DNA of 64,000 bases, from assembly GCA_965209055.1 (NCBI GenBank), contig OZ242374.1, positions 832,001 through 896,000 on the forward strand. The letters run 5' to 3'. Position 1 is the first letter of the stretch. Each line of letters begins with the position of its first letter. Below the pieces are notes generated by a model. That model had not been told where the DNA came from and ran no database searches. It saw only the letters and a program-made list of their open reading frames with translations. The translations under genes were made by a program, and so were the position numbers. The stretch comes from Acidobacteriota bacterium. Its GTDB lineage: Bacteria; Acidobacteriota; UBA6911; RPQK01; JAJDTT01. This document shows positions 1-8,015 of this stretch, in pieces.

Positions 1-342
1 GGCTCGAAACCCGTCGCCCGTCAGCCGGCCCACGACTCGGGGACGCAGGGGAGTGCGTTCCGGGAATCCCCCCAGGCTTTCGATGAATTCGGCTCGCAGG
101 CGTTCCTGGTAGTCCCGGATCTGCTCCGGGGTCTTCAGCGCTTCGTACGCCTGCAGACGCCGGTCCAGCGCGGCGTGGACGAGTGGCCGGAGATGATCCT
201 GAAGCAACCGGACTTCGCCGTCCGGCTGTGCCGATGCCGGCAGCACCCGGAGATCGGTCCCGAGCGCGATTTCGGGCGTCAGGGTCCAGACAAGAACGAC
301 AAGGAGTATGCGGGCTGTGCTGGGCGCTGGGCTGGATAACAC
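1..342 (-). CDS. 5' part of a secreted alpha/beta-hydrolase (acetylxylan esterase-like), runs off the window start
   Basis: Not in the ORF track. Manual translation from GTG 342 (GAGGA upstream) gives MLSSPAPSTARILLVVLVW...EFIESLGGFPERTPLRPRVVGRLTGDGFRA: a signal-like N-terminus plus the LGGFPERTPL..R.VG segment typical of these hydrolases. Confidence 0.6.
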   Translation of the reverse strand, partial: MLSSPAPSTARILLVVLVWTLTPEIALGTDLRVLPASAQPDGEVRLLQDHLRPLVHAALDRRLQAYEALKTPEQIRDYQERLRAEFIESLGGFPERTPLRPRVVGRLTGDGFRA

Positions 343-458
343 GAACCCGAATCCTCACAGGAATTGTGTCTGCGGTCAAACGACTTCAGAATGCGGTTCG
401 CGGGGTTCCACAGTCTGTGGAGAAAGCCCCGCCCGGGACCGGGAGCGAAGGAAGGGGA

Positions 459-2075
459 ATGAAAGCGGACAGCGGGAAAGCGCACGATATCGACGTTCTC
501 ATCGTCGGAGGGGGGCACAATGGGCTGGTCGCCGGAAGTTACCTGGCGCGGGCCGGCCTGGAGGTCCAGGTCCTGGAGCGGCGGTCCATGGTCGGCGGGG
601 CCTGCATCACCGAGGAGCTCTTTCCCGGTTTCCACTTCTCCAGTTGCTCCTTCATGCTCTACGCGCTGCACCCCAAGGTTGCGGACGACCTGGAACTGCA
701 CCGATACGGTCTCCAGGTCTTTCAGGTCGATCCCTTCCTGTTTCGCCCCTACCCCGACGGCCGGCGCCTGGTGCTGCACCAGGACCCGGAACGCAACGCG
801 GAAGCCATCGGCGCGTTCTCCCGCCGGGACGCGGAGAGCTACCGGCGATGGAACCGGTTGTGGGAACGGTTCCATTCCATCGTGCACGCTTACGTGCTCA
901 CGCCCCCTCCCGCCTACGTCGATCTGGTGAGGAGGGCCAGGGAGACGGGCAACCTCGAGATCTTCAAGAAAGTCCTGATCACCAGCCACGCCGACCTGGT
1001 CGAGGAGTTCTTCGAGTCGGATCACGTCCGGGCCGCCATGATCCATTCCGGAGACCATGGCGACCCCCGGTCCATCGGAAGCGCCCTGCCGGCGGCCTTC
1101 CTGCCGGGCGACGTGGCACCCGAACGGCGGATCGTGGGCATCGTCAAGGGAGGAATGGGCGCGGTCACGCGGGCCATGGCCGCTTACCTGGAAAGCCAGG
1201 GCGGCGCCATTCGCACCGGGTGCCAGGTCCGCCGCGTCCTGGTGGAGGACGGCCGCGCCCGGGGTGTCGAACTGACCAGCGGAGAGACGATCCGAAGCCG
1301 CTTGGTCGTCTCCAACGCCGACCCCAAGCGCACCTTCCTGGACCTGGTCGAACCGGAACATCTCCCCCCGGGCTTCTGCGGTAGGGTCCGCGGCCGGCGG
1401 ACCGAGATCGGGTACTTCAAGTTCCACGCCGCCATGGATGAATTGCCCGACTTTTCCTCCTGGCTGGGAAGGGACTACGATCCGCGAATCACGGCCCGCG
1501 TCTGGATCTGCCCCTCCATCGAATACGTGCGGCGCGCCTGGCGGGACGCCCGGCGGGGCCGTCCTTCGAGGCAGCCCGTCATGTCGATCCAGATCCCCTC
1601 CGTCTACGACGACAGCATCTGCCCGCCGGGCAAGCACGTCCTGTCCATCTTCGCCGAATACGCGCCGGTCCGTCCGGCCCGGGGCAATTGGGATGAACGC
1701 CGGGAGGAGGCCGGAGAGCGGCTGATTGACGCGGTGACGGCGTATGCGCCCAACTTTCGTCGTGCTATTGCAGACTGGATGCTCTTGACGCCTCTGGACC
1801 TGGAACGCCGCGTCTACCTGACCGCCGGCAACATCCACCACCTGGACATGACGCCGAGCCAGGTCTTCTCCCGCCGGCCGCTCACGGGCTGGGCCGAGTA
1901 CCGGACCCCCGTCGAGGGCCTGTGGCTCTGCGGCGCCGGCACCCACCCGGGCGGCGAGGTCTCGGGAGCGCCCGGTCACAACGCGGCCCACGCCATCTTG
2001 CGGGATCTTCGGAGGGGCGATTCCCAATCGCCCGGTTCCCCCTCGTTTGCTGATGTCGAAAGAACCGGCGGTTAG
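459..2075 (+). CDS. Phytoene desaturase-family NAD(P)/FAD-dependent oxidoreductase
   Basis: GGGHNG dinucleotide-binding motif, ERR..VGGAC.TEE, C-terminal LWLCGAGTHPGGEVSGAPGHNAA. ATG 459 follows GAAGGGG. Confidence 0.85.
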   Translation: MKADSGKAHDIDVLIVGGGHNGLVAGSYLARAGLEVQVLERRSMVGGACITEELFPGFHFSSCSFMLYALHPKVADDLELHRYGLQVFQVDPFLFRPYPDGRRLVLHQDPERNAEAIGAFSRRDAESYRRWNRLWERFHSIVHAYVLTPPPAYVDLVRRARETGNLEIFKKVLITSHADLVEEFFESDHVRAAMIHSGDHGDPRSIGSALPAAFLPGDVAPERRIVGIVKGGMGAVTRAMAAYLESQGGAIRTGCQVRRVLVEDGRARGVELTSGETIRSRLVVSNADPKRTFLDLVEPEHLPPGFCGRVRGRRTEIGYFKFHAAMDELPDFSSWLGRDYDPRITARVWICPSIEYVRRAWRDARRGRPSRQPVMSIQIPSVYDDSICPPGKHVLSIFAEYAPVRPARGNWDERREEAGERLIDAVTAYAPNFRRAIADWMLLTPLDLERRVYLTAGNIHHLDMTPSQVFSRRPLTGWAEYRTPVEGLWLCGAGTHPGGEVSGAPGHNAAHAILRDLRRGDSQSPGSPSFADVERTGG

Positions 2076-2089
2076 GAAACCGCCGCTCC
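2066..2089. repeat. REP-like palindrome, family A (CGGCGG-N-CCGCCGCTCC)
   Basis: cggcggttaggaaaccgccgctcc overlaps the stop codon. The same family recurs at several sites in the window. Confidence 0.65.
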
Positions 2090-2104
2090 TGCTGGAGGCC
2101 GCCC

Positions 2105-3559
2105 ATGCCCCGTCCCAATCTTCTGGTGCTGATGACCGATCAGCAGCGAGCCGACACCGTGGGTCCCGCCTCTCCCTGCCGGACCCCCCACCTGGACGCC
2201 CTGGCTGCTCAGGGAACCCGGTTTCTCCGTGCCTACTCTTCCAACCCCATCTGCTCGCCCAGCCGGGCGAGCCTGATGACGGGGCTCCTGCCCCACAGCC
2301 ACGGGATGGTCGACTGCACCCATACGGTGGAGCCCTATCGCGCCGACCTGAAGCCGGGACTCCCCTTCTGGAGCCGGGAGCTTCGGGGCGCCGGGTATCG
2401 CACCGGCTACTACGGGAAATGGCACATCGAGCGCTCCAATCGGCTGGAGGATTTCGGATTCGATTCGTACGAGCTGATGGAGAGCTTCGAGGCGGCCGAT
2501 GTGGGATGCCAACGGGTTCCCGACGCCGGCTACCTGGCGCGCCGCCGGAGCCTGGGACTCCCCGAATCGGATCGCCGCTGGGAACGCAAGGGGATGGTTC
2601 GCCATCCCGGATACCGGGACCTGTTGCTGCACGGCGTCGTGGACGAGCCCGTGGAGGGAACCCGCGAGCACCACGTCTTCTCGCGCGGGATCGATTTTCT
2701 GAATGAACCGGCCCGCGGCGACCAACCGTGGTGCCTCTTCCTGAGCACCGCCGGTCCTCACGATCCCTACGTCGTGCCGCGGGAATACCGTCGCCGCTAC
2801 GACGCCCGTTCCCTGATGCCTCCCCCCAGTTTCCAGGACGATCTGGCCGGCCGTCCCGCCATCTACCGGCGGATGCGGAGCGTGTGGGACCAGATGCGGT
2901 GGTCCGATTTCGCCGAGGCCACCGCCTGCTACTACGCCTTCTGTTCCCTCGTCGACGACCAGATCGGGAGGATTCTGAGGGTCCTGGAGGAGACGGGCCA
3001 GTCGGAGAATACGCTGGTGCTGTTCCTGTCGGACCACGGTGACTACATGGGAGCCCACCGTCTGATGCTCAAGGGGGTCCCCGCCTTCGAGGAGGCTTAT
3101 CGCGTGCCCCTGATCCTGAAAGGTCCCGGGGTGAATCCGGGACAGGAGGTCCCCGAGATCGTCAGTCTGCTGGACGTGGCGCCGACCCTGACGGAGCTGA
3201 CGCTGGGAGAGGACTTCTCCTGCCACGGGCGGTCGCTGCGTCCGCTGTTGGAGGGGGACGGATCCGGCTGGGACTCGGAAGCCTACGCCGAAATGCAGGG
3301 CCAGAGAATGGCGTACACGCAACGGGTTCTCTGGAGAGACAACCACAAGTACGTCTTCAATGCCTTCGACGAAGACGAGGTCTACGACCTGGAACAGGAT
3401 CCCCACGAACTGCGCAACCTGGCCGGAAGCCGCGAGTCCCTGTGCCGGGAGATGGCGGCTCGGATGTGGGAAATCGCCCGAGCCACCGGCGACTACAACC
3501 TCTACGAGTCCCAGTACGGCTGCTTCCGCTGGGCGCCCGTGGGACCGGAGGCGCGCTAG
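2105..3559 (+). CDS. Sulfatase (formylglycine-dependent, choline-sulfatase-like)
   Basis: PNLLVLMTDQQR, CSPSRASLMTG (CxPxR), GKWH, SDHGD motifs. Confidence 0.92.
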   Translation: MPRPNLLVLMTDQQRADTVGPASPCRTPHLDALAAQGTRFLRAYSSNPICSPSRASLMTGLLPHSHGMVDCTHTVEPYRADLKPGLPFWSRELRGAGYRTGYYGKWHIERSNRLEDFGFDSYELMESFEAADVGCQRVPDAGYLARRRSLGLPESDRRWERKGMVRHPGYRDLLLHGVVDEPVEGTREHHVFSRGIDFLNEPARGDQPWCLFLSTAGPHDPYVVPREYRRRYDARSLMPPPSFQDDLAGRPAIYRRMRSVWDQMRWSDFAEATACYYAFCSLVDDQIGRILRVLEETGQSENTLVLFLSDHGDYMGAHRLMLKGVPAFEEAYRVPLILKGPGVNPGQEVPEIVSLLDVAPTLTELTLGEDFSCHGRSLRPLLEGDGSGWDSEAYAEMQGQRMAYTQRVLWRDNHKYVFNAFDEDEVYDLEQDPHELRNLAGSRESLCREMAARMWEIARATGDYNLYESQYGCFRWAPVGPEAR

Positions 3560-3564
3560 GAGGG

Positions 3565-3578
3565 GGGACTGTTAGTCC
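3565..3578. repeat. att core, left copy (GGGACTGTTAGTCC)
   Basis: Identical to 7094-7107. Contains the dyad GGACT-GTT-AGTCC. Confidence 0.85.
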
Positions 3579-3607
3579 GACGCTCTGTCCAACTGAGCTA
3601 CGGGATT
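3565..3607 (-). pseudogene. tRNA-like 5' half (acceptor 5' strand, D-arm, partial anticodon arm)
   Basis: Minus strand reads AATCCCG-TA-GCTC-AGTTGGACA-GAGC-G-TCGGA-CTAACAG-TCC. D-arm is canonical; no T-arm or 3' acceptor strand follows. Confidence 0.7.
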
Positions 3608-3627
3608 GATCCTTTCCTTTCAACAGG

Positions 3628-4734
3628 TTATCCCGATGCTCCTCTCAAATCGTTCCTCCTATTTCCTCCCCGTTGCCTGTTTGTTGCCGGTCTCATTTGT
3701 GAGTCTTCGGTAGCCTGTGCCTCCCGAATGCTGGCAAGCGCATGCGAACTGACGTACCCCGCGTAGCGCATCGTCGTGCTGATCGAGGAGTGGCCCATCA
3801 GCTTCTGCACCGTCCTCACGTCCACCCCCTGCATCAGCCAATGGCTGCACCGGAATCGTCTCAGGTCGTGAAATCCGACCTTCAACCCCACCCGCTCGGT
3901 GGCCCGGCGCAACGGCTTGTCCGGATTCACCCATCTCGTGCCGGTTCGGGTGTTGACAAAGACATATGGGGTGCTCAGGTAGCGAACCAGCCCGGTCAGG
4001 TATCCTGCGGCGTACTTCGACAGCGGGATCTCCCTCGTCTCGTCGTTCTTGGTGAATTCCACCCATAGCAGCCTCCGGGATAGATCCACCCGTTTCCAGG
4101 TGAGCGACAACGCTTCGCCTTTCCGAATCCCCGTCTCGCCGATCACGGCGATCATGGCTTGCAGGTAAGGGTTGTCCATCGCCTCGACCAGGTCGCGGAA
4201 CTGTTGAACCGTCAAGGGCCGGAAGACCTTCTTGGGTTCTTTGAGTTTGGGGAATCTCACCAGCGGGTGCGTGTCCACTTCCCCGCACTCCAGCGCGTAG
4301 GAAAACAGCTTGCTGATGGCGGCAATGTCCCGGTTCACCGTGGCCGGCTGCACTTGCTTCTTTCTCCTGGCGACGTAGCGGTACAGGTCCTTGCGTTGGA
4401 ACTCCTTCAGGGGAATGTTCCCCAGCATGGCGTTGAGGCTCTTGAACGAGAGCGCATAGCGGCGGCGGGAGCGCATGCGAGGTTTGCAATACTCCTCGAA
4501 GAAACGCTCGTAGAAGCTCCGGACCGTCCAGACGGTGCGGTTCCCGCCGGCGAGCTCCTCCTTGAGCTGCTTCCAGGTGCCGTCCAGGATGCTCGACTCG
4601 ATTCGTGTTTGAAGCGCCTGTGCGCTCCGGTAGTTGGGGGCGTACATTCGGAGCCGACCGGATCCGTTCGGCCAGTACTTGCTGACGACGTACCGTCGTC
4701 TCCCCCGGCGATCCTTCACCTTGTAGATGCCCAT
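3628..4734 (-). CDS. int: Tyrosine recombinase / phage integrase (lambda Int-like, with N-terminal arm-binding-like and core-binding domains), 368 aa
   Basis: TGIRKGE (catalytic R), TKN (K), FHDLRR (HxxR), LMGH...TTMRY (H, Y). ATG 4734 follows a strong SD (AGAAAGGAGG). Confidence 0.95.
   Translation of the reverse strand: MGIYKVKDRRGRRRYVVSKYWPNGSGRLRMYAPNYRSAQALQTRIESSILDGTWKQLKEELAGGNRTVWTVRSFYERFFEEYCKPRMRSRRRYALSFKSLNAMLGNIPLKEFQRKDLYRYVARRKKQVQPATVNRDIAAISKLFSYALECGEVDTHPLVRFPKLKEPKKVFRPLTVQQFRDLVEAMDNPYLQAMIAVIGETGIRKGEALSLTWKRVDLSRRLLWVEFTKNDETREIPLSKYAAGYLTGLVRYLSTPYVFVNTRTGTRWVNPDKPLRRATERVGLKVGFHDLRRFRCSHWLMQGVDVRTVQKLMGHSSISTTMRYAGYVSSHALASIREAQATEDSQMRPATNRQRGGNRRNDLRGASG
3674..3691 (+). 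repeat. Candidate integrase arm-type sites (tandem TGCC(T/G)GT), left end
   Basis: tgcctgtttgttgccggt matches 6971-6988 tgcctgtctgttgcctgt at 16/18. Each copy is about 100 bp inside an att core. Confidence 0.6.
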
Positions 4735-4800
4735 GCATCTCCTCCTTTCTGGATCCGGGTTCTTCGCCGTGGGGCGAATCGTACCACGGCTCCAGAGAAC

Positions 4801-4877
4801 GGACCGGTGGGACCTGTCCCCCCAGACCCCCCAGTGGCGCCAGAACCCGCGCCGGATCACCATTCCGGCGCTGAACC
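4801..4877 (-). repeat. 77-bp structured motif, copy 1 (inverted relative to 5804-5880), upstream of int
   Basis: Ungapped 60/77 identity to 5804-5880 by manual count. 8-bp stem GCGCCGGA/TCCGGCGC with loop ATGGTGA, then GGGGGGTCTGGGGGGACAGGTCC. Confidence 0.8.
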
Positions 4878-5247
4878 GGGCGCTTTTATTTGTCGCGTCC
4901 CATAAGAATGGGTCCCTCGCGCAGGATTCCCGCCGCGTCTCTCGCAGGCTTCCCGGTCGGAGCAAATCTGTCCCCGGCCGAGGTGTCGCTTGAAACCCCC
5001 TCAGGCGGGAATTCTCGTGAGATCGTGAAAAAACAAGCCCGCCATCTGGCCTGTGTTGGCCCGCCGCAGCCGGACGAAGGGTTAGGTATAGGCCCCGGAG
5101 CGTCGTCCAGAAGCCTCCGGCGCGGCGCCGGGAAACAGGCAATTCTCAGCACGGGCGCAGCCCGTTAGGTAGTCCATGAGATCCGGAGCTCGGGCGATCG
5201 GCAAGACGCGATCCTGCTTCCAGAACTCAGCCTGATGGTGAAGACGG

Positions 5248-5277
5248 CTGACGTCATCCGATCTTCTTGAGTAGAAT
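5248..5277 (+). promoter_or_regulatory. Putative sigma70-type promoter for the small membrane peptide
   Basis: CTGACG-N18-TAGAAT upstream of SD GGAGG (5311-5315). Confidence 0.35.
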
Positions 5278-5323
5278 CTGATGGAAGTGGGTCAATCGAA
5301 AGCAGGCCAGGGAGGCAAAGCAG

Positions 5324-5455
5324 ATGCGCTCAGACCACACCCCCCCCCCCACCATGCTCAGGATGGTCGTTGCCGTCGTCATCGGACTGATTGTGTTCGA
5401 GGTGGTGGCGGCGCTGTATCAGGTCGTCGCCGGGTTCTTTCTGGCGGCTTTCTGA
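5324..5455 (+). CDS. 43-aa hydrophobic membrane peptide with an internal C11 tract
   Basis: Below the ORF-track cutoff. MRSDHTPPPTMLRMVVAVVIGLIVFEVVAALYQVVAGFFLAAF; GGAGG lies 8 nt upstream of the ATG. Confidence 0.55.
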   Translation: MRSDHTPPPTMLRMVVAVVIGLIVFEVVAALYQVVAGFFLAAF

Positions 5456-5803
5456 CGTCTTGCCGGGTTTTCGGCCCCAAGAGCAATCCAAAATCACGGC
5501 GATGGTAGCCGGTCGGGCCAAGGGTTCCACCTCGATGGCCAGGCCGACATGGAAAGCGTCCTCGGTTCTGGCGATCCAGGGGAGAAAGTAAATTGCACCG
5601 GTGGGGCTGGGGGCTTGAGAGATCGGTGGCAACACTGAACTGGAGGCAAAACGACGCACCCTGTGGGAAATCTCTGATTTTCCACACGGTGGGGAGGTTC
5701 GTTGAGACGAGGCTCGATCCCTCTTTGGAGAGTTCTTTGGTGGGTATGTGTCTCTTCGCATCCGGGGGGTTCGGGGGGGCTGGCCCCACCGCTACGAGCG
5801 TCA

Positions 5804-5880
5804 GGTTCACGGTCGGCTTGGTGTGCCGAACGGGGTTCAGGCGCACCAGGGGGGTCTGGGGGGACAGGTCCACCCGGTCC
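5804..5880 (+). repeat. 77-bp structured motif, copy 2
   Basis: Stem CGGTCGGC/GCCGAACG (7 of 8 paired) with loop TTGGTGT, then the same G-rich block as copy 1. Confidence 0.8.
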
Positions 5881-5917
5881 TCGGTCTTCTTCCGGGCCTT
5901 CCCGCAGGGAGAATTGA

Positions 5918-6014
5918 GACGGGAGCGACCCCCCCAGGGGGTGTTGCGCAAATGTGAATTGCGCAACGCCCCCGCGCCCGCACCGGGCAGCAAAAAGGGG
6001 GGGTCGCTCCCGTC
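5918..6014 (+). other. Nested stem-loop (three-way junction); candidate structured RNA or ssDNA signal
   Basis: Perfect 18-bp outer stem 5918-5935/5997-6014. 15-bp inner stem 5937-5951/5959-5973 with one G-T pair on the + strand. Small GCCCG/CGGGC hairpin. Confidence 0.7.
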
Positions 6015-6240
6015 CACCTCCATTTTCCCCGTGCGGCCACCCGGTGGCCGGGAATGGGGCCGTAACTGACTGAAAGGAAAAAAGATCGGGGAGAGTGAAT
6101 TTGTGAGTCACCGGGACCGCTTTTTGTGAATCCACCCCCTTTGTCCCATTCACATCCCGGATCGGGCGCGAGACCCTCTTGACGCACGCCCGAAACGAGT
6201 CACCAATAACCTTTGCGGCGGCCGAGAGTGGTCATCTCGA

Positions 6241-6480
6241 TCACAACTGACACGGAGCGATCCTCCACCGCCGGTGCGTCGCCATCCAGGAGCGCAGACC
6301 CTCGGTGACCACCGGCTCCGGAGCGACACAGACGAGGGTGGCCCTGCCGTCCTCGACGGCAATCTGCAGTTTGAACGCCAAGTAACGCCGGGTCCTCCCC
6401 ACTGCGCCATAGGGCACTTGCCGGGGATGCTGATTCTCGGGAATGGCGTCCCGTCCGAAGGGGTCTACGGACTTGTTCAT
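6241..6480 (-). CDS. Hypothetical protein, 79 aa (element-borne)
   Basis: ATG start with GAGGGTG upstream. No motif recognised. Confidence 0.4.
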   Translation of the reverse strand: MNKSVDPFGRDAIPENQHPRQVPYGAVGRTRRYLAFKLQIAVEDGRATLVCVAPEPVVTEGLRSWMATHRRWRIAPCQL

Positions 6481-6625
6481 CCGCCGTCACCCTCGGAATG
6501 CTCTACGACATCGGATGGGAGCTACGTGAGCGTGGAGTGGACCCCCTCGACGTGCTACGGTGTCTCGAAGGTGCTCAGTAACGACCACTCAACTCAGTGG
6601 TGCAACCGAGTAAGGAGTAACCCTA

Positions 6626-6892
6626 ATGAACCCAGCCCGCGAAACAATTCCGCCCGAACGCCTTCAACAAATTGCGGCGTGGGACGGATTAGCTTCCCAA
6701 GTCGTTCTCGTGGACGTTCCGGGTCGGGGACTGGTTCCCAAACTGAGGTTGTGGTTTCAGTTCCGACGACTCGGACCACCGCCTCCGGGTAACGGGCCAA
6801 CCATTCACCAAGAAGCAGTTGTCGGTCTGGAATTTGCGCAGAGGATGGTGGACCACATATCGAGTGCAATTGCCGACGCGAAGCAGCGTTGA
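6626..6892 (+). CDS. Hypothetical protein, 88 aa (element-borne)
   Basis: AAGGAG SD 8 nt before the ATG. Globular-looking composition; no motif recognised. Confidence 0.6.
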   Translation: MNPARETIPPERLQQIAAWDGLASQVVLVDVPGRGLVPKLRLWFQFRRLGPPPPGNGPTIHQEAVVGLEFAQRMVDHISSAIADAKQR

Positions 6893-6970
6893 CGTTCACG
6901 GAGCCGCACTTGGGGCAGTTGATACGGAAGGGAGAAAAAGGGCGCGCCGGCTTTCAGGAGCCGATTCGGC

Positions 6971-6988
6971 TGCCTGTCTGTTGCCTGT
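6971..6988 (+). repeat. Candidate integrase arm-type sites, right end
   Basis: Direct-repeat partner of 3674-3691. Confidence 0.6.
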
Positions 6989-7093
6989 TCAGCATGTCAA
7001 ACATAGGGAGTCAACCACCTTACCGATTCGGCGAAGAACCCGGTAAATCACTGTAAACGTTAATGTTCGGTAGTCTTTGACTTTGGGACAGTT

Positions 7094-7107
7094 GGGACTG
7101 TTAGTCC
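7094..7107. repeat. att core, right copy (GGGACTGTTAGTCC)
   Basis: Identical to 3565-3578. Confidence 0.85.
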
Positions 7108-7113
7108 CCCTCT

Positions 7114-7265
7114 GCGGCGACTTTCCTGTCGCCCACTGGGACAGGCAACTATCTTGTCGCTTGGTCTTCTTGCCGGAAAGTGTAAAGGGGGGACTACCGT
7201 CCCCCCTCCCCCCCCTGTCGGCGGTTGGAAACCGCCGCTCCAAGTCGCCGCTCCAAGTCGTCGTT
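7114..7265. repeat. Cluster of REP-like palindromes (families A and B) between convergent host genes
   Basis: ggcgactttcctgtcgcc; aggggggactaccgtcccccct; cggcggttggaaaccgccgctcc. Confidence 0.7.
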
Positions 7266-7268
7266 CCC

Positions 7269-8015
7269 CTAGTACATGAACCACCCACCGTTGACGTCCA
7301 GGGTGGCTCCGGTGAAATACGAGGCTTCCTCCGAGGCCAGGAAGACGACGACGGAAGCGATCTCCTCCGGGTCGCCCAGCCGTCCCAGGGGAATCTGGTC
7401 GACGATCGCCGCCACCTGCTCCGACGGAATCCGCATCATGTCCGTATCGACAACTCCAGGCGCGATGGCATTCACGGTGACATCGGGAGCCAGTGTCCGG
7501 GCGTACGACTTGGTGATGGCGATGATCCCCGCCTTGGTGGCCGCATAGACCGACGAGGCGGCCACGCCTCCCGTCCGGGCGCCGACGGAGCTGATGTTCA
7601 CGATCCTTCCCGAGCCCTGCCGGACCATCACCGGCGACACCGCCTGCGACACGAAGAAGGTCCCCTTGAGGTTGATCCCCACGATCCGATCGAAGTCCGC
7701 CTCGGTCACCTCCTCCAGCGGGATTCGCGGGCAGATGGCCGCGTTGTTGACCAGGACGTCGATGCGCTCGTGCTCCGTCACGATCTTCTCGATGGCAGTC
7801 GAGATCTCCGATGGCCGGGAAATGTCAAGAGTGTAGGCGGCCGCCGACTTCCCTTCCCGGGTCAAACGATCCGCCAGTCGCCGGACTCCCTCGGTGTTGA
7901 TGTCGCAGAGCACGACCTTGGCGGACTCATTGGTGACAGCCCGGGCGATGGCCGTCCCGATCCCGCCCGCGGCTCCTGTGATCAATACGACCTTGCCGGA
8001 TAGCGTTCCCTTCAT
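7269..8015 (-). CDS. Short-chain dehydrogenase/reductase (FabG-like)
   Basis: TGAAGGIG, NNAA, YAATK (YxxxK), VNAIAPG motifs. Confidence 0.92.
   Translation of the reverse strand: MKGTLSGKVVLITGAAGGIGTAIARAVTNESAKVVLCDINTEGVRRLADRLTREGKSAAAYTLDISRPSEISTAIEKIVTEHERIDVLVNNAAICPRIPLEEVTEADFDRIVGINLKGTFFVSQAVSPVMVRQGSGRIVNISSVGARTGGVAASSVYAATKAGIIAITKSYARTLAPDVTVNAIAPGVVDTDMMRIPSEQVAAIVDQIPLGRLGDPEEIASVVVFLASEEASYFTGATLDVNGGWFMY

Follow-up and report, generated by a model that had tools for sequence, protein, structure and literature searches.

What kind of element consists of a single integrase gene and little else, and by what route did it enter its chromosome? The question is raised by positions 3565-7107 of the window, the whole 64-kb stretch of DNA analysed here; we refer to this segment as E02 and to its genome, a single 6.08-Mb contig, as G000. 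A preliminary description had presented E02 as a minimal integrative element and had proposed that it represents an undescribed class of satellite. Our findings support the first part of this picture, as E02 is a genuine integrative mini-element in which only the integrase is under purifying selection and whose non-coding motifs are kept across copies. However, it does not stand alone, being one of at least 26 related elements of 2.7-25 kb in G000. We consider it probable that E02, intact and almost free of cargo, belongs to a lineage-specific group of site-specific integrative elements that target hairpins in a manner derived from tRNA-Arg.

The ends of E02, its relatives and their target hairpins

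E02 is bounded by exact 14-nt direct repeats of the core GGGACTGTTAGTCC, located at 3565-3578 and 7094-7107. This agrees with the terminal repeats originally reported, and at up to one mismatch the 64 kb hold these two matches and no third (0.03 expected; 1 of 100 shuffled sequences gave two). The left copy, on the plus strand, is the attL crossover region and represents the top of the target hairpin, with a 4-bp stem and the asymmetric 5-nt loop TGTTA. Because the core is the top of a GTAG-tagged hairpin resembling repetitive extragenic palindromic (REP) sequences, we attribute the insertion to integrase-mediated recombination.

The integrase itself is encoded on the minus strand at 3628-4734 and comprises 368 aa, with an AGGAGG box 6 nt ahead of its ATG. 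It matches the Pfam family Phage_integrase (PF00589) at an E-value of 3.6e-28, contains N-terminal Int_N/SAM-like domains, and aligns with solved integrase and Xer chains (e.g., 5c6k_A) across the R, HxxR and GH..Y motifs, which bears out the earlier view of an intact tyrosine integrase with a strong Shine-Dalgarno sequence. Its ratio of non-synonymous to synonymous polymorphism (pN/pS), pooled over 11 copies that are related and not independent, is 0.14, compared with 1.47 for a 79-aa open reading frame (ORF) of E02, likewise pooled (1.0-1.9 pairwise), whose start and length vary among copies. The integrase is the only E02 gene under purifying selection, and the characterization of the element as one integrase within mostly non-coding DNA remains valid.

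Additional signals are repeated in the two arms. The motif GTTGCCTGTT lies at 3672-3681 (plus strand) in the left arm, and its counterpart lies at 6980-6989 in the conserved right arm (6924-7107, plus strand), which also contains a 15-nt box at 7029-7043 and ends in the attR core at 7094-7107. A perfect inverted repeat of that box is found at 4755-4769 (plus strand), approximately 21-35 nt upstream of the integrase ATG. Such matching subterminal motifs had been noticed before, and they prove to be real and conserved: among the 25 complete elements described below, the arm motif GTTGCCTG(TT) occurs in direct orientation in both arms of 24-25 (scored by 8-mers of the motif), and the 15-nt box before the ATG recurs inverted, 79 nt from the right end, with a match of 11-15 nt in all 25. 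Judging from sequence conservation, they may serve as arm-type and operator sites, and the left-arm motif is a candidate binding site for the integrase.

When the DNA of E02 was used as a query, 90 matches were obtained in G000. Local blastn yielded 39 matches to the left module (core plus integrase), 66 to a structured non-coding module that we designate M (5894-6275 in E02), and 30 to the 184-nt right arm. These hits pair into 25 complete elements of 2,698-25,080 bp and one that is severed by the contig end, labeled E01-E27 with E17 unused. Three blocks are common to all copies, namely the left 1,235 nt, M and the right arm, and the stretches between them vary. A scripted search recovered an exact flanking repeat of 10-15 nt for 21 of 25 complete elements; the remaining four, in which its windows were misplaced, have an imperfect 14-nt repeat with an exact 7-nt centre.

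The smallest members of the family (2.7-2.8 kb) are barer still than E02, and several copies are nearly indistinguishable. For instance, E25 and E26 are 100% identical across 2,781 bp and have different flanks, E21 and E27 show 1 difference in 2,717 positions, and E05 and E23 agree completely across 10.5 kb once the group II intron within the integrase gene of E23 is set aside. These near-identities point to recent mobility. E02, in turn, is identical to no other copy and is a mosaic, its left 2.6 kb being 96% identical to E06 and its right 1.2 kb 98% identical to E24. The group II intron, approximately 1.9 kb long and carrying a 499-aa ORF with RVT_1 and GIIM domains, splits the integrase gene in 3 of the 26 elements (E01, E14 and E23), at the same nucleotide in all three; in E01 it corresponds to L028:1161-3072.

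Together with the core, the outer flanks of every copy make up a G-rich palindrome. Of the 44 occurrences of the 13-mer core in G000, 31 mark the ends of elements, one is a solo end and 12 lie in unoccupied hairpins, which usually have (T)AGGAGG in front of them and a C-run behind. G000 contains 87 hairpins with the stem GGGGGAC and 99 with the stem GGGCGAT, in many loop variants, and the reversed genome contains 0 and 0. In a fold test, 23 of 25 reconstructed targets passed the chosen threshold, as did 274 of 500 random genomic 42-mers; the identification of the targets as hairpins is therefore based on the flanking palindromes and on the counts of cores and stems. An unoccupied hairpin of the same stem class and with another loop neighbors E02 at 7186-7209; it belongs to a hairpin repeat cluster to the right of the element (7116-7241) that occurs at many places in all 8 congeners. 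A 13-nt tandem duplication is present at 7233-7258.

Two genes of the family Y1_Tnp (PF01797), of the REP-associated tyrosine transposase (RAYT) type, are encoded in G000, one of them beside E03, and another lies next to hairpins in the congener G004. The target therefore combines the two hallmarks of REP/RAYT systems, high-copy extragenic palindromes and a Y1 transposase, and RAYT may act on these hairpins. Their leading TAG fits the class of GTAG-tagged palindromic repeats (PMC3733652).

The subfamilies of the elements differ in their cores, and these cores match different hairpin classes. The 14-nt core of E02 flanks the elements of subfamily A (seven, including E02), and the nine elements of subfamily B occupy the same hairpin in the opposite orientation, because the 5-nt loops of the two subfamilies are reverse complements. 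Tyrosine recombinases act on inverted core-binding sites that flank an asymmetric overlap. By analogy, the integrase would recombine the attP core with a genomic hairpin, whose palindromic stem would furnish both inverted core-binding sites and whose asymmetric loop would act as the overlap and so fix the orientation. We found no tyrosine integrase family with REP hairpins as its attachment site in the literature covered, most subscription journals and supplements lying outside that coverage.

Relationship to tRNA-Arg genes

A clue to the origin of this targeting is found next to the left core. On the integrase strand, the 31 nt entering the core of E02 (3574-3604, minus strand) match positions 4-34 of the G000 tRNA-Arg(TCT), with 28 of 31 identical, and comprise the 3' part of the acceptor, the D arm and the 5' strand of the anticodon stem, continuing into the core. 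Among 68 tRNAs, tRNA-Arg(TCT) was the best or joint-best match for all six subfamily representatives, and the core of E03 retains the TCT anticodon loop. ARAGORN and Rfam found no tRNA at either end of E02, and the tRNA-Arg genes of G000 lie elsewhere, such that E02 lacks the insertion in a reconstituted tRNA gene that characterizes tRNA islands.

Related integrases, on the other hand, are found at such genes. Complete tRNA-Arg genes follow, at the same spot, the homologous integrases of the genomes G003 (82%), G010 (72%) and G035 (71%), and the integrases of G012 and G009 (52%) have next to them a full or partial tRNA-Arg that is oriented the other way. The G003 integrase stands at the end of an island delimited by two tRNA-Arg 5' halves with 47 kb between them. 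Family copies in G004, G005, G007, G008 and G002 end in hairpin cores. We compared 16 integrases in a tree rooted at its midpoint only, drawn from G000 (8 of its 26 copies) and from relatives (8 loci), with the partial or broken copies of G002, G006 and G008 omitted. In this tree, all 11 hairpin-associated integrases fall in one clade (92/90), with subfamily A nested within B, and the successive outgroups are G003, then G010 and G035, then G012 and G009, all of them associated with tRNA-Arg.

Together, the vestigial tRNA half and the outgroups adjacent to tRNA-Arg point to retargeting from the tRNA-Arg anticodon loop. The family looks like a set of anticodon-loop integrators of tRNA-Arg that were retargeted to anticodon-arm-like hairpins and subsequently spread in the manner of insertion sequences (ISs). 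According to this scenario, the ancestors would have entered the anticodon loop and carried the 5' half of the tRNA to rebuild the gene, and this half would persist as the vestige beside the core. The change of target to hairpins resembling the anticodon arm would then have opened dozens of sites, allowing IS-like spread to at least 26 copies.

The 47-kb island of G003, with its 82% integrase at the end and between two tRNA-Arg 5' halves, could also be taken to mean that E02 is no longer mobile, a fossil left behind only as a repeat after a larger tRNA-Arg island or prophage had lost its genes and decayed. The preliminary description had recognized that homologs residing in larger islands would speak for such a remnant. 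One part of this concern is confirmed by the G003 island, and the other is contradicted by the identical 2.8-kb copies at two sites. The 79-aa ORF, which looks like a decaying remnant, and the rearranged flanks of E02 are compatible with a fossil. Against it, the integrase is intact and under purifying selection, the cores and arm motifs are also intact, the smaller 2.7-2.8-kb copies at different sites are identical or one base apart, and a hairpin in G006 is occupied in the other orientation, which represents an independent insertion. We consequently regard the fossil explanation as very improbable.

Module M, small ORFs and cargo

The portrayal of the E02 interior as rich in hairpins is upheld. 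An 84-nt inverted duplication, with a left arm at 4801-4884, upstream of the integrase gene, and a right arm at 5797-5880, is 77% complementary in E02 and is also present in the 2.7-kb elements. A perfect 18-bp stem (5918-5935 with 5997-6014) encloses a 15-bp hairpin, and there are further palindromes. This nested hairpin (5918-6014) forms the core of the non-coding module M (5894-6275) and is followed by repeated TTCACA/TGTGAA words. The folding of 5894-6275 exceeds that of shuffled sequences, with z-scores of -7.1 (plus strand) and -4.95 (minus strand), and Rfam returned 0 matches at E-values up to 1 over positions 3300-7400 of the window.

M is present in all 26 elements, and 33 of its 66 blastn matches in G000 lie outside them. 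When 33 copies from 10 genomes are aligned, almost no variation is seen in the outer stem and the CACCTCC that follows it, and the inner parts are variable. Within this alignment, 97.2% of cells pair and 9 of 32 pairs have changed on both sides, values that 0 of 500 shuffles reach and that compare with 45-60% pairing in slid controls, the structure having been derived from the same alignment, which favors pairing statistics. The conservation of non-coding motifs among homologs, which had been put forward as a check on the element, is thus established.

With a covariance model (up to 44 candidates scored per genome), M was detected in at least 21 of 76 genomes of the order, including all 8 genomes of the genus, among them G001, which is without this integrase. 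A copy 88% identical to M is located at L062 of G023, a genome from another family of the order, where this integrase is only fragmentary. This distribution suggests that M-bearing islands have been transferred between families.

Outside the elements, M typically lies 82-224 bp behind the stop codons of P4-like integrases or directly upstream of an ORF of ~150 aa. The P4-like integrases (Arm-DNA-bind_3 plus Phage_integrase) are followed by one to three tandem, partly truncated copies of M, as seen at G000 814794-818035, 1064763-1066990, 2675691-2678857 and 2971023-2973251. M may be an attachment or control region of these integrases. Its narrower assignment as their attachment site, for which the distance of 82-224 bp from the stop codons and the tandem partial copies were considered, was set aside, the island ends not being definable. 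The ~150-aa ORF directly downstream of M in many islands has a high third-position GC content and is found, for instance, at G000 3840624-3841088 and 1600707-1601291, approximately 10 further G000 loci and G001 L065:1715-2075; it belongs to no Pfam or PHROG family and reached protein atlas scores of only 0.77-0.78. A PHROG search of six small ORFs returned nothing. ARAGORN called 85-nt tRNA-Val genes on the M copies at G000 3841235-3841319 and 5203736-5203820, which we rejected as spurious given their mismatched cloverleaf stems.

We conclude that M is a conserved structured cis-element or RNA of mobile islands. As to its role, we give first place to a control or leader region, ahead of a recombination or docking site, with a transfer origin in third place. 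The last of these belongs to a different explanation of the whole element, in which E02 would be a hitch-hiking satellite or mobilisable mini-element, M would act as an origin of transfer (oriT), a functional RNA or a signal for packaging or replication, and the proteins would come from a helper. The constancy of M is what such an explanation would lead one to expect, as the module occurs in every element with a nearly invariant outer stem, its compensatory pairs exceed those of shuffles, and it has passed from one family of the order to another (88% identity in G023; at least 21 of 76 genomes). Islands consisting only of an integrase and an oriT are, moreover, described in a 2026 preprint (bioRxiv 10.64898/2026.01.13.699239).

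The gene content of E02 and its genome argues otherwise. G000 yielded zero matches to PF03432, PF08751, PF02534 and PF03135 (relaxase, TrwC, coupling-protein and VirB4 families), and an oriT reading of M is therefore without a resident helper. E02 has no relaxase, which together with the lack of a conjugative helper in G000, as judged by these four marker families, separates it from integrative mobilisable elements (IMEs) and iOriT islands. Neither a phage-like gene nor the marks of a phage satellite, that is, a replication, packaging or capsid gene or a regulator beside the integrase, were found in E02 (Pfam for 13 ORFs, PHROGs for the three micro-ORFs). In the P4-like islands, the position of M directly upstream of the ~150-aa ORF is leader- or operator-like; the payload of other copies is protein-coding defence cargo; and the observed spread lies within one genome and needs the integrase alone. 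A satellite lifestyle, as first proposed, thus appears unlikely, and the structured RNA or single-stranded DNA payload thought to define a new satellite class is instead a family backbone that is shared with P4-like islands, the larger members of the family carrying defence proteins.

Beyond the integrase, the coding content of E02 is modest. The three micro-ORFs of the preliminary description are all present (5324-5455, plus strand; 6241-6480, minus strand; 6626-6892, plus strand) and have no Pfam or PHROG family, and ten further interior ORFs have no Pfam family. The 13 non-integrase ORFs hence include no recognisable Rep, relaxase, primase, capsid, repressor or cargo gene, as had been stated. 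The 79-aa ORF at 6241-6480 shows a tblastx match to the ~150-aa ORF (42% over 40 aa, E-value 3.6e-6) in inverted orientation; from this weak inverted homology, it is probably a decaying, inverted remnant of the ORF that follows M in P4-like integrase islands.

The hydrophobic 43-aa ORF at 5324-5455 lies behind a promoter-like site (5248-5277), and a complementarity of 27 nt exists between its upstream region (5199-5225) and its 3' end (5439-5465). In its layout, the locus 5199-5465 resembles a type I toxin locus. Both the ORF and the promoter-like site are contained in a 723-bp segment (4923-5645) common only to E02, E01, E06 and E10, and contigs of three runs jump precisely from 4922 to 5645/5646. 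Similarly, the 88-aa ORF at 6626-6892 is contained in a segment (6460-6923) common only to E02 and E24, which is 98% identical between them. For the 43-aa and 88-aa ORFs there are too few comparators for pN/pS, the 88-aa ORF having one comparator with 1 change.

Other members of the family carry considerably more. The cargo scan covered 20 representative ORFs, with the same cargo traced in other elements through blastp clusters; E04, E09, E14 and E24 were scanned incompletely. Of the 25 complete elements, at least 10 carry restriction or GmrSD-type defence cargo. The systems include type I HsdR/HsdM (E11, E15, E20 and E22), a type ISP/IIG enzyme (E16), type III Res and Mod (E18), an MmeI-like enzyme (E12) and GmrSD-Schlafen proteins (E05, E08 and E23). 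Leucine-rich repeat (LRR) proteins are encoded in E13 and E19 and an fn3 protein in E03. PADLOC restriction/defence models match 8 of the 10 largest scanned cargo proteins. The remaining inserts in the family are IS transposases, nested P4-like integrases and group II introns. In nearly all copies, homology to E02 has an abrupt break at element position ~1235 and is restored where M begins, and such breaks hint at defined cargo slots. Cargo, mostly restriction-modification and GmrSD-type, lies on either side of M, in the interval from the integrase to M or in that from M to the right arm. E02 is without recognisable cargo, the 723-bp insert being its only extra DNA.

Genomic context, mobility and comparison with known systems

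To the left, E02 is flanked by a sulfatase gene whose stop codon abuts the hairpin. The sulfatase ortholog of G004 (90% identical) has the same hairpin, unoccupied and with the loop TTTTA instead of TGTTA (1 nt). In G006, it is this sulfatase-side hairpin that holds the independently inserted element in opposite orientation. No hairpin was found at the sulfatase counterparts in G002, G003, G005 and G007, nor at the second sulfatase copy of G000. To the right, E02 adjoins a short-chain dehydrogenase gene, which in G004 and G001 lies approximately 0.3-0.4 Mb from the sulfatase and is preceded by another gene ending just ahead of hairpins; the dehydrogenase-side hairpin of G004 is unoccupied and of the same class. 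In G000, this other gene adjoins E27. Because the two flanks of E02 derive from different ancestral loci, the single empty site that had been predicted is a chimera that never existed, E02 joining halves of two ancestral sites. The expectation of unoccupied alleles in a relative was nevertheless correct, since both hairpins are empty in G004, though at two different loci.

Regarding REARRANGEMENT around E02, the 46 kb to its left (G000 789046-835550, including positions 1-3550 of the window) are a ~98% duplicate of 172931-204967. E01 and E02 stand in the same orientation at either end of the duplicated segment, the source copy of which begins exactly at an unoccupied target hairpin. These observations would be accounted for if two elements and the DNA between them had moved or recombined as a block. 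Mapping the outer flank of E01 in three congeners did not place the ancestral site of the block formed by E01, the segment and E02.

This context invites the suspicion that E02 is an assembly artefact, a repeat collapsed or mis-joined between two other copies. Its non-cognate flanks and its mosaic of E06-like and E24-like parts would be in keeping with that, as would the end of the G000 contig (6077182), which falls inside a family member, 28 nt short of the left end of E27 and with no continuation at the contig start; the assembly was probably broken there at a repeat. However, E02 is identical to no other copy, recombination among copies would give the same mosaic, and a 1,551-nt short-read contig, from a run possibly derived from the same sample as the assembly, crosses the left junction without differences. 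We give the artefact explanation hardly any credence. The comparison with the window covered four runs, as contigs only. One joint from 3576/3578 to 7210/7211, in the metagenome run X7, was set aside, as it has 24 nt on one side and joins two similar hairpins.

Several points weigh against regarding E02 as a simply inserted, self-sufficient element. Its flanks are non-cognate, the left being the end of the 46-kb duplication and the right a locus whose other half lies beside E27, such that recombination between copies, instead of simple insertion, may have brought E02 to where it now lies. At the right junction, short-read contigs keep 27 nt on the element side, which is below the 31-nt rule, and the assembled contigs, which cannot show circles or rare empty sites, contain no circle junction or precise empty site of E02. 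Since the contig ends inside an element, the assembly around repeats is imperfect. No excisionase candidate passes the selection test by pN/pS, a measure that, as noted, pools related copies. Conservative site-specific recombination alone does not account for the rising copy number. Finally, M stays unexplained by an integrase-island account; G-U and A-C mismatches both occur in it (327 and 122 cells in a loose whole-module fold, the core stems being mixed), and therefore no transcribed strand can be named.

For the integrative element described here, we infer an excised circle, recognition of arm and core sites, excision by the integrase only, a rise in copy number and any role that M may have. 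A bolder version, which we offer tentatively and consider possible rather than probable, is that escape from tRNA-Arg to REP hairpins gave rise to an integrase-only, transposon-like platform. Such a platform would multiply within a genome, swap restriction and defence cargo at sharply bounded slots, flip its polarity by inverting the 5-nt overlap, and move or duplicate tens of kb between copies, with M as an undescribed docking or control element or RNA shared with P4-like islands.

The interest of the family lies in the fact that, within one genome and with intermediates visible, an integrase appears to have changed its target from a unique tRNA gene to a similar repeated hairpin and then to have behaved like a transposon. 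It ties together tRNA-targeting islands, REP sequences and defence islands, which are usually treated apart. The proposed rule for specificity and orientation, based on the stem arms and the 5-nt overlap, is testable and could serve programmable multi-site integration. Our findings also suggest that REP hairpins can be landing pads through which restriction systems, and even chromosomal segments of 46 kb, are shuffled. M, in turn, is a multi-copy structured motif without an Rfam family that is present in at least 21 of 76 genomes of the order.

Among known systems, integrons (PMC4792948) offer one comparison. In integrons, IntI recombines folded attC hairpins. Both systems involve a tyrosine recombinase acting at imperfect palindromes and cassette-like cargo with sharp boundaries. 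The E02 integrase, however, is IntI-like only in the shared catalytic fold (weak partial match to 2a3v), and elements of its family move whole, integrase included, and have no attC arrays.

Insertion sequences provide a second parallel. Some members of the IS110 family target REP sequences. REP-targeting insertion sequences are similar in using abundant extragenic palindromes as sites and in their copy numbers, and they differ in relying on DEDD or HUH transposases; the REP/RAYT background is given in PMC2817692, PMC3116915 and PMC3733652. The E02 family, in contrast, has a tyrosine integrase, attP, arm motifs, a conservative core repeat and up to ~22 kb of cargo; the ends of E02 are direct core repeats and not terminal inverted repeats, and the tyrosine integrase is its only enzyme.

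The iOriT islands (bioRxiv 10.64898/2026.01.13.699239) are likewise minimal, with an integrase, conserved non-coding DNA and defence genes nearby; they differ in that M is here only a putative oriT and the four conjugation marker families are absent from G000. Another comparison is with the tycheposons of Prochlorococcus, which use seven tRNA genes as sites and many of which carry a 2-4-kb replication module or packaging genes (bioRxiv 10.1101/2020.12.28.424599). Tycheposons share with the E02 family a modular structure, a tyrosine recombinase module of ~1 kb, partial tRNA repeats, several copies per genome, variable cargo and rearrangements. The E02 family differs in having no replication module (Pfam), tRNA targeting that is only ancestral, REP-like hairpins as targets, and mainly restriction and defence cargo.

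A further comparison is with genomic islands and prophages that insert, by means of a tyrosine integrase, at the anticodon-loop sublocation of tRNA genes, reportedly described by Williams in 2002 in Nucleic Acids Res. Common features are an integrase beside the att core, a core that is an anticodon-type stem-loop, a tRNA fragment that is carried along, and relatives at tRNA-Arg. The differences are that E02 and the 25 other copies lie outside tRNA genes, that the family occupies multi-copy REP-like hairpins with at least 26 copies per genome, and that its tRNA half is vestigial. E02 consequently belongs to none of the established groups of tRNA-targeting islands, satellites, IMEs, tycheposons or insertion sequences; in its way of working, it is like a classical integrase island, and its kinship is with the islands of tRNA-Arg.

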